Below, in pieces: positions 50,858 through 53,800 of a stretch of 64,000 nt of DNA. Each line of letters begins with the position of its first letter. Positions within the stretch are counted from its first letter, which is position 1. This stretch comes from Botryllus schlosseri. Its lineage: Eukaryota. Both the position numbers and the translations under genes were made by a program. Location of the stretch: contig CM119371.1 in NCBI GenBank assembly GCA_051294905.1, forward strand, positions 32,242,001 to 32,306,000, given 5' to 3'. The notes below the pieces were generated by a model that ran no database searches, was not told the origin of the DNA, and was given only the letters and a program-made list of their open reading frames with translations.

Positions 50858-53800
50858 TTAATTTTTTCTTGGGTCACTGCGAAAGCGATTGAGACCACGG
50901 AAAGATGCATCGGCGTCGTATCTCACTTCCATCAAACCAGGTTGATGAAGATAATGAGCATACGTATCTTTACAGCATTGTCTCGAGCGGTCAAAAGAAA
51001 TCGGATCAGTCAGGAATTCGTTTCGATGCTCATCACAAAAATACCGTGGAAACCAATTCTCGTAATCACAGTAAAATTCGTTCCTTTTCTCGGAAATGAG
51101 AATATCATCGAGCGGTGCTGAATGCGCGATGAAAAACGAGTTGATATCCACCGAAAGTAGCATGAAGCTGTCGGCACGAAAATATTTGCATAAACAGTCA
51201 TAAAAAAACGACAACATCCGTAACTTGACATTATTATACAACCAGAACGATACTTGAATGCAGTTATCTTGCTCGATCTTTTGAGGGTGCTTCGTTATTT
51301 CAAATAGATCTGTGCTTAATTGTTCACACTTGATGAAAAAGCGATCCTCCACATTTGCGTCCAATTCACTTTTATCACAGAACGTGGTTTGTTTGAGTTT
51401 ACGCGGATTCATTAACTCGCGATCATAACAAGAATTCGCAGCGAGTTTTTGCGTTAGCCCAATAAACTCCATGTTAGGATCGCGATCCCCAGCACGTCGA
51501 CAGTCTGAGACATTTTTCGCAAAGTTGTCAAAACAGGTCTTTTTTGCGAATTCGACAGCCTCATGAATTTTTGATACCGCCAACCCGTGGTCTACATACC
51601 ATTTGATCAAGTCGGAGGTTAGCAAGATTTTCTTACCGCAGTACGACGCAACCAACATGTCAGTGGGTTTACTGGGTGATTTCCGATCTACAGCAAGCTG
51701 ATTCATGTCACTTTTCACGGTATCGCGAGACACTGTGGTATTTTTGAATATCGGGCGGAGTTCAACGAATCGCCTTTTCAACCGCGGTCGAGTACAAATA
51801 TCAACCAGCAAACAACCAAAGAAAGTACCATTCATCACCATCTCCATCAATTTCTGTGGGGTGACAGACTTGGCACGAGTCAGTTGTGGTTGAATGCCAT
51901 CGAGATATCGCACAATATGGGGATTTCTCTTCTCAATATTCCACTCGCATTCCCATTTACATACAACTCGATAATTTAGACTTTCGTAATAATCATGAAT
52001 GCGTTTAGCTCGCTCTCGACGTACTGGGTCGTCACATCCGAATCTGCAATCGTGGGCGTGAAAATCGCATCTAAGGAACAATAAGATTATCCCTTGTCCG
52101 GCCGAATTACGATAAAACCCATCAGGTCGATAATTGCGCACACCCACATGAATTTCAGGTCCGTTAAAAGCGTGGTGAACATGCACCTTATTAACATGAA
52201 AATACCAATTCATCCACTGGGTTACAGTCTCTGAGCATTTCGGCGCGGTCTTGACAGGTTTGAATTTTGTACACTCGGGGTCGATTGGTTGCCAACGTAT
52301 CGCAAATCCGGTTGGACTTGGTTGACTCAAAGCATACAGATAGAGTGAGTCGCTGGTCAAACTTGTTATATGTTGCACAATCTGTGCATTTTCCTTATAG
52401 ACATGTTCTTTGATTCGAGTTACACCTGGTTTTGGGTGTCGATGGAAAATGATCGATGGTCCACCCACTAAATTATCCCTGAATAGCGAAACCAGATCCT
52501 GGTGTTTGTCGTTGAACATTGTGAAATCACGCGGGATGCTGTTAAAAAGATGCCTCGATACAACCCCGAGCAGGCAGACCGCATCCTTGAATATATCAAC
52601 ATTGAATTGACTTTTGAAAGATTGGAATTGTTTTTCTAAAACCTCTATGAAGTAGTGAGTATCGTTCGCGTTGCACCATTTGAGATAATCACGCAGAGAG
52701 GTCATTTTGTTGTCGTTCCAAACCTTCAAACAGTTTTCATATTCAGCTGTGGATATATTACAACCTTTTAGTGGGTTGTAAAACTCGTCGTGGTTTGGTA
52801 GACTCGAGTTATTCAACTTTTCCAAACTAGTCAGAAACTGGTACGGGAAGTGAGCTTTAGCGGTGCTACATTTGACGACCTCCAAATATGAATCATACGA
52901 GAACCCGGGTGTCAAGTAATTCACAATATCCAAGAATTGAAGTCTGTTGGTCGTCATTGCGAGAAATTTGTTACCGCGTTTCAGTACACTAAGATTGTCG
53001 TCAACGAGAAAACCAAACAAGTACGCTTTGATCCAGTTCAAGTCATATCGATCGCCATTGAACGACAAAACAGGGATTTGACGCAAATAACTCATAAACT
53101 CCACTTGTAAACGTTCAAGGGGTATTGGGTGTTTTGAAGGATCGAGCGCTTTCATTTCGGTAATTTTTGATTTGAGCATGTCCAGGTAGGGTCGATATTC
53201 TGTGAGTGACAGTCTGAATGATTCACTTTGAATATCGTGAAAATGGTCAATCATTTGTGCGCACAAATCGTTTGTATCACCGCTCGAGATAATTACATGC
53301 GACTCCAAGTAACCTTCCACATTAGACGATATGCTAACAGAGATGGGGATGTTCTGGTGCTCTCGAGAAGTTTTTGAGGTATTGTCAGTATCATACCCAC
53401 TCTCTATACTGAACGCGATACGGTATTTGAAATAACGAAATTGGTGGGGAACGAATACCCCTTCAAGATCGAGCTTTTCAAATATGTTCAGAGGAGGTGT
53501 ATACACGCCACCGGGAAACACTTCAACAGAACCCGTTGCGCATTTGTGCCTGGTCAATTCATACTGTTCGTTAAATAACCGTAGACAAACATCACATTTA
53601 TAGGTCTCCATATACCGCCTCATGTCAGTAATGAGACAGAAGTGTGTATTTTCTAAATGTAAGTACACAGGTTTCGCTTCAAACGTACTACGACGGAGCG
53701 CGCTAGCTTCACCCTCGGTCTTGGTGTACACGAATATAGCAACATTAAACAAGGTCTCGATATCGTCCAACATGTCAAGAGTTACACCAGATTCTACATT

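Follow-up and report, generated by a model that had tools for sequence, protein, structure and literature searches.

The question raised by a 64,000-nucleotide stretch of Botryllus schlosseri DNA (GenBank assembly GCA_051294905.1, contig CM119371.1, positions 32,242,001 to 32,306,000 of the forward strand; this whole stretch is called the window, and positions are counted from its first letter) is why a mobile element of the Maverick/Polinton type should keep open, over some 1200 codons, a gene for a protein-primed DNA polymerase of family B (pPolB) in which the active sites of the exonuclease (Exo) and of the polymerase (Pol) have been replaced. The gene belongs to a clade of similarly altered copies, called dead or dead-type below, that reside in the same genome beside a clade of canonical, or live, ones. 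The dead clade is clearly under purifying selection and its elements have moved recently, and the account put forward here, which is judged probable with modest confidence, is that of a Maverick lineage which depends on a helper and in which the pseudo-polymerase is under selection for a role other than catalysis. The open reading frame (ORF) and its altered sites are the following.

50858-54481, minus strand: dead-type pPolB ORF, free of internal stops; 1207 codons if counted from a GTG, 1201 if counted from the ATG at 54463
53408..53410, minus strand: Exo I, Ser358 (AGT); Asp in 132/134 homologues and in 18/18 live copies
52673..52675, minus strand: Exo III, Cys603; Tyr in 159/159 homologues
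52349..52357, minus strand: motif A, T-S-D (Thr709, ACC at 52355-52357, and Asp711); relatives have D-x-N, with Asp in 158/158 homologues
51422..51424, minus strand: motif B, Asp1020 (GAT); Gly in 145/147 homologues (KLxxNSxYG)
51140..51148, minus strand: motif C, D-I-N, codons 1112-1114 (Ile1113, Asn1114); D-T-D in 125/125 homologues
50858..50893, minus strand: truncated C-terminus, three codons including the KxY lysine gone, a stop 10 codons further on, and the thumb of ~95 codons absent

A homologue search with the dead pPolB returned 4852 relatives at E<=1e-3 (best E 1.6e-192). The motif states were scored on 161 of these (11 + 150 from two homologue searches), which were aligned with the query and with a live paralogue from the same genome and read at the catalytic columns. 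An earlier sequence-only reading of this DNA had claimed, by comparison with a Polinton consensus, that the Pol and Exo sites were systematically lost; against the 161 real homologues the claim is borne out, the motif coordinates that it gave (codons 358, 709, 1020 and 1112-1114) are exact, and the frame is indeed unbroken. It was also right that the changes from Asp to Ser and from Asp to Thr each need two base changes, since the live copies have GAC or GAT at codon 358 and GAC at codon 709. In motif C both the Thr and the second Asp are present in 125/125 homologues where the query has Ile1113 and Asn1114, and in the RTPGLFK motif the Arg (118/123 homologues) and the Lys (121/123) are His and Glu in the query. 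The remaining Exo residues (the Exo I Glu, the Exo II Asp and the Exo III Asp) are kept, as is the first Asp of motif C. The Asp two residues downstream in motif A, to which the sequence-only reading had drawn attention as a possible shifted ligand, is real: Asp711 is found in 20/20 dead copies, at a position where 145/158 relatives have Asn. None of the 161 homologues departs from the canonical state at two or more of the core catalytic sites. More broadly, 100 alignment columns are conserved at >=90%, and at the 91 of these that could be scored (nine lie N-terminal to the supplied piece of the query) the live paralogue retains 90 and the query 61, so that 30/91 near-invariant positions are lost in the latter.

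The stop before the KxY motif and the thumb, likewise reported in the sequence-only reading, stands as well. The thumb was sought elsewhere in the window by a tblastn search with the last 115 residues of the live protein, which matched only their first 42; past the stop of the dead ORF, the DNA is of low complexity and then turns into a degenerate remnant of another ORF. Taken by its residues, the dead pPolB is almost certainly unable to synthesise DNA.

The window's own assembly (495.5 Mb) holds 47 matches to the dead gene, 38 of them long, and all 38 were fetched. A tree built from their Exo-Pol core separates 20 dead and 18 live copies into two deep, reciprocally monophyletic groups. All 20 dead copies carry S358, N377, C603, S707, T709, D711, R898, D1020, I1113, N1114, F1117 and R1187, and all 18 live copies are canonical at these 12 marker sites; the number of fixed amino-acid differences between the clades is 63. 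The truncated end was found in all 13 of the 20 dead copies that were read there, and the full thumb in 4/4 live copies examined. The frame is open from codon 151 to the stop in 17/20 dead copies (the exceptions are L007, L009 and L010) and is open in 16/18 live copies. When matched dead and live proteins are compared, they are 75% identical in Exo-Pol and 95% in the N-terminus. DNA words covering motif C, allowed <=3 mismatches, occur genome-wide at 38 places in the dead form and at 59 in the live form, with 0 hits for reversed controls, which rules out the assembly error that the sequence-only reading had named as a way in which it could be wrong. One of the dead-type matches (G000:C9:123339-123373) reads GAT ATC GAC, i.e., D-I-D, with an Asp at the second position. 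In one live copy (L015), motif C reads MVTDS, its first Asp being replaced by Val, while the copy is otherwise canonical; this probably reflects decay after insertion.

The selection acting on the dead module was estimated over the core (codons 346-1195) from pairwise Nei-Gojobori (NG86) estimates of non-synonymous (dN) and synonymous (dS) divergence. The core medians are dN 0.033 and dS 0.159 for dead-dead comparisons, dN 0.016 and dS 0.219 for live-live comparisons, and dN 0.139 and dS 0.850 for dead-live comparisons. A core dN/dS of 0.24 is obtained from ten dead pairs that are phylogenetically independent (non-synonymous differences 421.5, synonymous differences 437.5), and one of 0.075 from nine live pairs. 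The non-synonymous fraction of differences in the dead pairs is 0.49, against a neutral expectation of 0.79 (binomial p 9e-86), which supports the long-term selection proposed in the sequence-only reading, for which a dN/dS comparison among dead-type copies had been suggested as the check. Differences at codon positions 1, 2 and 3 amount to 3.1, 2.3 and 5.9% in the dead pairs and to 1.4, 0.9 and 7.1% in the live pairs. The constraint runs along the dead protein: the ratio of the uncorrected proportions (pN/pS) lies between 0.12 and 0.39 in every 85-codon window, and the last 25 codons of the ORF (1171-1195) are nearly neutral, with a pN/pS of 0.67. As a benchmark, 611 nt of non-coding DNA from the same elements differ by 0.086 in seven of the same pairs, a value that agrees with the pS of 0.084. 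The dead module is thus clearly under purifying selection, yet its constraint is relaxed about threefold relative to the live one. On the stem that separates the two clades, the ratio is 0.17 after half of the crown depths has been removed, so no episode of positive selection need be assumed. Gene conversion was considered as a source of the low dN/dS and rejected, as only one 150-nt window of the core is >=93% identical between dead and live copies.

The protein itself offered little to direct searches: a Pfam scan gave no match to PF03175 or to any other polymerase family even at E<=1, and a sequence search of the PDB returned nothing relevant, so that the family was assigned through the homologues, the live paralogue and the fold. 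PF03175 is matched by 2/11 homologues and by the live paralogue (E 1.2e-8). An AlphaFold2 (AF2) model of residues 331-1207 has a pLDDT of 90.2 and a pTM of 0.87, and in a Foldseek comparison with the PDB the top nine rows are all phi29 DNA polymerase (best 1xhx_A, E 9e-9, TM(target) 0.55); in the predicted structure, the Exo-Pol fold is retained. The whole protein is laid out as a terminal protein (TP)-like domain D1, a viral OTU-type protease (vOTU), a zinc finger, Exo, and Pol with a VSR insert, without a thumb. Polinton pPolB is described as organised as TP-vOTU-Exo-Pol in the available part of PMC11161782, and the domain order of the dead pPolB fits the architecture given there. The parts other than the Exo-Pol motifs are listed here.

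53987..54424, minus strand: N-terminal domain D1 (~aa 20-165), whose position makes it TP-like; its identity to the live-type N-terminus is 95%, and 9/20 dead copies have it deleted
53615..53965, minus strand: cysteine protease domain, vOTU-like (aa 173-289), which retains Cys201 and His280
53540..53602, minus strand: zinc finger, C2H2-like, that separates vOTU from Exo; matched weakly by Pfam zf-C2H2_6 (E 0.009), with C, C, H and C invariant among aligned relatives
51842..52249, minus strand: VSR-like endonuclease insert (~aa 745-880) between motifs A and B; its alignment profile matches the Vsr structures 1odg, 1vsr and 1cw0 at E 3e-5

The naming of D1 as a putative terminal protein follows its position, after the part of PMC11161782 at hand; a model of its residues 41-157 gave only weak fold matches (Z ~5) to unrelated domains, including the little-finger/PAD domain of Y-family polymerases, which are too low to interpret. 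The protease is better defined. The AF2 model of residues 7-345 (pLDDT 86) shows an OTU-type protease domain at 173-289; in a VIA-align comparison with 48,161 chains, the best 28 rows for it are all of the OTU family (Z 9.0-5.2, with OTUD1 at Z 9.0), and Foldseek gave a weak match to OTUD1 (E 8e-3). Cys201 and His280 are invariant among the aligned relatives and are kept in every dead and live copy examined. As for the VSR insert, the sequence-only reading had counted its site among the inactivated ones, and this holds only in part. The canonical FHGCxxHxH is absent from the dead copies and from the 4/4 live copies read at this motif, which share a Leu in place of the first His (FL.C..H.H), so that this change does not mark the dead type; the changes from Gly to Arg and from His to Asp are confined to the dead type in the comparison with these four.

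How the two clades are related becomes clearer from the elements that carry them. The relevant features of the element in the window are these.

42935..58275, 15,341 bp: complete Maverick/Polinton carrying the dead pPolB; terminal inverted repeat (TIR) ends read directly, ORF set co-linear with that of a live-type element
42935..43574, plus strand: left TIR, 640 nt
57636..58275, minus strand: right TIR, 640 nt
42929..42934 and 58276-58281: left and right copies of the 6-bp target-site duplication AACGCT, read directly
47843..48913, minus strand: integrase with chromodomain, 356 aa (Pfam rve E 2.8e-16, Chromo E 2.2e-9)
49622..50233, minus strand: packaging-ATPase-like gene, 203 aa; weak Pfam matches to AAA_14, RNA_helicase and Pox_A32; of equal length in the live element
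50549..53600: diverged "dead cassette", 69-84% identical to the live type in all 200-nt windows but one (0.90 at 52558-52757), with a right boundary at ~53400-53700
50582..50834, minus strand: degenerate remnant of the region of a 202-aa live ORF, 72% identical to L039 9071-9335

With its long TIRs, its 6-bp duplication and its rve integrase, the element is a Maverick/Polinton, and it is structurally complete and recently inserted. The 640-nt TIRs are identical at 639/640 positions, the sole mismatch being at 43135; a search for inverted repeats reported 644-nt arms with two mismatches, one of which (42933) lies inside the target-site duplication.

Compared by blastn with a live-type element (L039, L040), the window element is 95-97% identical in the flanks (43174-50549 and 54094-58036) and ~72-84% identical in the cassette. 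Sliding identity places the right boundary of the cassette at the junction of vOTU/zinc finger with Exo. The N-terminal 300 codons of the query, together with the DNA upstream, are 94-100% identical to live copies, closer than to some dead copies, and the dead-live dS is 0.36-0.65 over codons 1-345, no larger than within either type, against 0.63-1.6 in the core. Outside the cassette, the ORF sets of the dead and the live element do not differ, nor do the lengths of the ORFs, and the terminus of the TIR is 91% identical over 46 nt to that of a live element. Present in the live element in addition are the thumb and, between the genes for the ATPase and pPolB, two small ORFs of 202 aa (L039 8729-9337) and 75 aa (L039 8370-8597). 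Near-identical flanks and an identical set of ORFs around diverged cassettes indicate that the two modules recombine, with recombination at the vOTU/Exo junction; as a result, the TIRs, the integrase, the capsid-side genes and the N-terminal half of pPolB are common to both kinds of element.

That the dead elements have transposed recently follows from the copies themselves. Those on contigs C6 and C10 are identical at 4368/4368 bases, and the copy on C13 differs by four bases; on the one side that can be read, the C6 and C10 copies diverge past the end of the TIR, and as their flanks are unlike, they are separate insertions. The dead copies have also lost more than the active sites. An in-frame deletion of ~79 residues, which removes the core of the TP-like domain, is found in 9/20 dead copies (L011, L012, L017, L018, L019, L021, L022, L023 and L029) and in 0/18 live ones (Fisher p 0.0013). 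The deleted copies include the near-identical, latest-moved ones, and their core dN/dS is 0.21-0.24. Such a loss, confined to dead copies, is what would be expected if the dead elements already rely on a helper. It also weakens one role proposed in the sequence-only reading, that of a TP carrier, for the deleted copies remain under a dN/dS of about 0.2. Three of them (L017, L018 and L019) are longer than the query by ~960-980 bases in the N-terminal region and match query bases 20-548 a second time in part, which suggests a duplicated or rearranged 5′ part.

Put together, the dead Exo-Pol module would be an old allele without the exonuclease and polymerase active sites and without the thumb. 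Elements that carry it would be non-autonomous for replication and would be copied in trans by the live-type pPolB of the same genome, and where the TP-like domain is deleted, the live elements would supply the terminal protein as well. Three facts that lay out of reach of the sequence-only reading point to helper dependence: a live clade resides in the same genome, the backbone is shared, and transposition has been recent. The dead protein, open and under purifying selection along its length, presumably serves the element in a non-catalytic way, most likely as a folded scaffold of vOTU plus Exo-Pol that may bind the element ends, the helper's TP or the helper's polymerase.

Several points weigh against this account. 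Inactivity, copying in trans and scaffold binding are all deduced from sequence. Two residues that might in principle coordinate metal, Asp711 and the first motif C Asp, are still present. The analysis took in 38 of ~100 copies, and at the catalytic columns 161 of the 4852 relatives. Pairwise NG86 estimates on transposon copies mix selection in active lineages with decay after insertion. The replaced sites are no more conserved in the dead clade than the average site (variable at 5/17, against 257/850), so there is no sign that the new residues are themselves selected. Lastly, four RNA runs, with 6-13% of the reads examined in each, cover the dead ORF to a depth of 0-0.9, a value that says nothing on silence.

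A second reading of the same facts, possible and to be held tentatively, is that the dead cassette is a selected pseudo-enzyme and one of two long-lived alleles in a single recombining Maverick population. Frequency-dependent selection could then maintain both alleles as a cheater and a co-operator. Alternatively, the live polymerase could have in the dead protein a partner without catalysis, for instance an origin-binding or TP-hijacking subunit. If this partner variant were true, Maverick replication here would use two pPolB paralogues residing on different elements, and if the two-allele reading were true in general, it would be the first sign of helper/satellite social dynamics within endogenous Mavericks.

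Doubtful, in turn, is the notion that the dead pPolB interferes, i.e., that it acts as a dominant-negative protein which sequesters TP, origins or the live polymerase and so suppresses rival Mavericks, in the manner of superinfection exclusion, or benefits the host. The retained fold and the live clade in the same genome would suit such a role, as would the region between motifs A and B, which is among the better conserved segments of the dead protein (dN/dS 0.19) and in which the TP-binding TPR1 of phi29 lies. The gene, however, is not a fixed host locus but is present in 38 or more mobile copies that have TIRs, a protein that inhibits the polymerase would hinder the replication of the very element that encodes it, which has recently spread, and no expression was seen in the examined fraction of the four RNA runs.

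Somewhat less credit is given to the view that only the N-terminal vOTU and zinc finger function, e.g., as a deubiquitinase in counter-defence or in polyprotein processing, and that the Exo-Pol body is constrained merely to fold, to stay soluble and to be non-toxic. The vOTU Cys and His are indeed kept in all copies examined, vOTU plus zinc finger have a pN/pS of 0.24 in the TP-deleted copies, and the replaced catalytic sites are not specially conserved. Yet the Exo and palm-C segments (0.13-0.18) are as constrained as vOTU (0.17), and a truncation after vOTU, which would be easy to obtain, is present in 0/20 dead copies despite large in-frame deletions elsewhere in the protein.

It is improbable that the dead elements need no protein-primed synthesis at all and spread without a helper, by excision and reinsertion through the integrase combined with host replication. 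The rve-chromo integrase is intact and the target-site duplication shows an insertion of the integrase type, but the selection on a 1200-codon dead ORF and the loss of the TP domain in dead copies only would both go unexplained, and the dN/dS of 0.075 of the live pPolB argues that polymerase function matters to the family.

Very improbable, too, is a protein that is still a polymerase by virtue of a rearranged active site made of Asp711, the first motif C Asp or other residues. Asp711 is fixed in the dead copies where most relatives have Asn, and the motif C Asp is kept; against this, the lost near-invariant positions include the motif B Gly, the KxY lysine and both the Arg and the Lys of RTPGLFK, the thumb is wholly gone, no relative among the 161 tolerates even two such changes, and the constraint is relaxed about threefold. 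That the low dN/dS is an artefact of gene conversion or misassembly acting on ordinary decaying pseudogenes is largely refuted, for although recombination is evident in the N-terminal third, the single core window of high dead-live identity, the 63 fixed differences, the 38 genomic matches to the dead word and the 17/20 open frames all speak against it.

Non-autonomous transposons, satellite viruses and defective interfering genomes use the replication enzyme of a helper and keep their cis-acting ends, and they normally delete the unused gene or let it decay. The helper-dependent account differs in that the disabled gene is full-length and under purifying selection, with the other genes of the element intact.

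Inactivated relatives of the enzyme have been described before. In polinton-like viruses (PLV), Tlr1 elements and transpovirons, an inactivated pDNAP is fused to a superfamily 1 (SF1) helicase (Krupovic, Yutin, Koonin 2016, PMC5499653, the available part of the text). The likeness lies in a Polinton-derived protein-primed PolB that has lost motif 4 (KxY) as well as active-site residues of motif 3 (C) and presumably has a structural role; going by the same part of that paper, Exo is gone in those systems, the helicase is fused on and the replication strategy has been switched, whereas here the element is a bona fide Maverick that has an integrase, the array of TP-like domain, vOTU, Exo and Pol is complete and not fused to a helicase, and the dead form recombines, within a shared backbone, with a live allele. 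Other inactivated PolB modules mentioned there are the C-terminal half of Pol epsilon, an archaeal PolB, a poxvirus virion protein and a subunit of the herpesvirus helicase-primase (PMC5499653). Like the dead pPolB, these have the PolB fold without the catalytic residues, are kept by selection and are thought to be scaffolds, but as far as the available part of the paper goes they are single-copy genes, cellular or viral, working in one replisome, while here a separate mobile lineage exists beside that of the active enzyme.

In mollusc and marine-nematode Polintons, a pPolB2 with a VSR insert has been reported, and in nematode Polintons, pPolB genes are swapped within one backbone by recombination (Jeong et al., bioRxiv 10.1101/2023.08.22.554363, the accessible portion). 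The present case resembles theirs in the VSR-like insert and in the presence, through recombination, of two very different pPolB in similar elements of the same genome; it differs in that both of their genes, to judge from that portion, keep the catalytic motifs, whereas here one is dead and is the sister of the live one rather than a member of a distant family. Adenovirus and bidnavirus pPolB retain an inactivated vOTU (Krupovic et al. 2024, PMC11161782, the part at hand), which is again a pseudo-enzyme domain within the pPolB polyprotein with a presumed structural role in replication. There, the vOTU is dead and the polymerase alive, and here the Cys and His of vOTU are kept and Exo and Pol are dead. 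The core genes of Mavericks are under purifying selection according to the available text of PMC8097293. In the openly accessible literature that was searched, main texts only and among them the available part of PMC6431247, no mobile Maverick lineage came up whose pPolB is full-length, catalytically dead and yet kept by selection, and which recombines with a live sister lineage.

The term "self-synthesising" is applied to Mavericks, and it is routine to regard an element with an intact pPolB ORF as autonomous. In one family of one genome, ~40% of the intact-looking pPolB ORFs would be catalytically dead, and their elements have still spread. The integrity of an ORF together with a dN/dS below 1 is no proof of enzymatic competence. 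The result suggests that lineages dependent on a helper can arise among Mavericks, just as they do among other viruses and transposons, and the pPolB polyprotein appears to have at least one selectable function besides catalysis. To our knowledge, the replication of a Maverick has never been reconstituted, and the matched pair of live and dead proteins could serve in its study.

The other genes of the element are less readily named. The Pfam matches of the ATPase-like gene are all sub-threshold (e.g., Pox_A32 at E 0.005), and a Pfam search, in which capsid and maturation protease families were among those expected, gave no match for the remaining ORFs of the element, nor for the live-only ORFs or two small ORFs of the element.

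RNA reads were aligned to the window, and 86-97% of the aligned reads of each run continue into unlike sequence. The only strong peak, at 50096-50609, reaches a depth of 10-49 in two runs and has loose ends of poly(T) ahead of 50213 and 50229, such as a polyadenylated minus-strand RNA would give; as the reads match only partly, the peak probably stems from a related repeat elsewhere. A fraction of 0.35 of the sampled words occurs in run X15, whose label names a different organism, which is no evidence of the lineage in another species. A region at 56778-57805, which includes a plus-strand ORF of 217 aa (56857-57510, no Pfam match), has a modest RNA depth in all four runs (both directions summed, up to ~10 in X20 and ~1-7 in the others), the source of which may be any of the ~100 copies.

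The surroundings of the insertion are themselves repetitive. The left end of the Maverick cuts an ORF with a Pfam RVT_1 reverse-transcriptase match (41960-42949), and to the left of the element lie fragments of RVT_1 ORFs and an rve integrase ORF (40260-41090, 41960-42949 and 33394-34173). An outer pair of inverted repeats, at 30383-31194 and 58550-59349 (~800 nt in pieces, 82-97% complementary), encloses the Maverick plus retroelement sequence of ~11.7 kb. Inverted repeats of each other are also the two flanks of the dead copy on contig C6, at 89% over ~1.4 kb past the TIR ends. It is possible that these outer repeats reflect an insertion preference for foldback-type repeats, or a nesting inside an older element.

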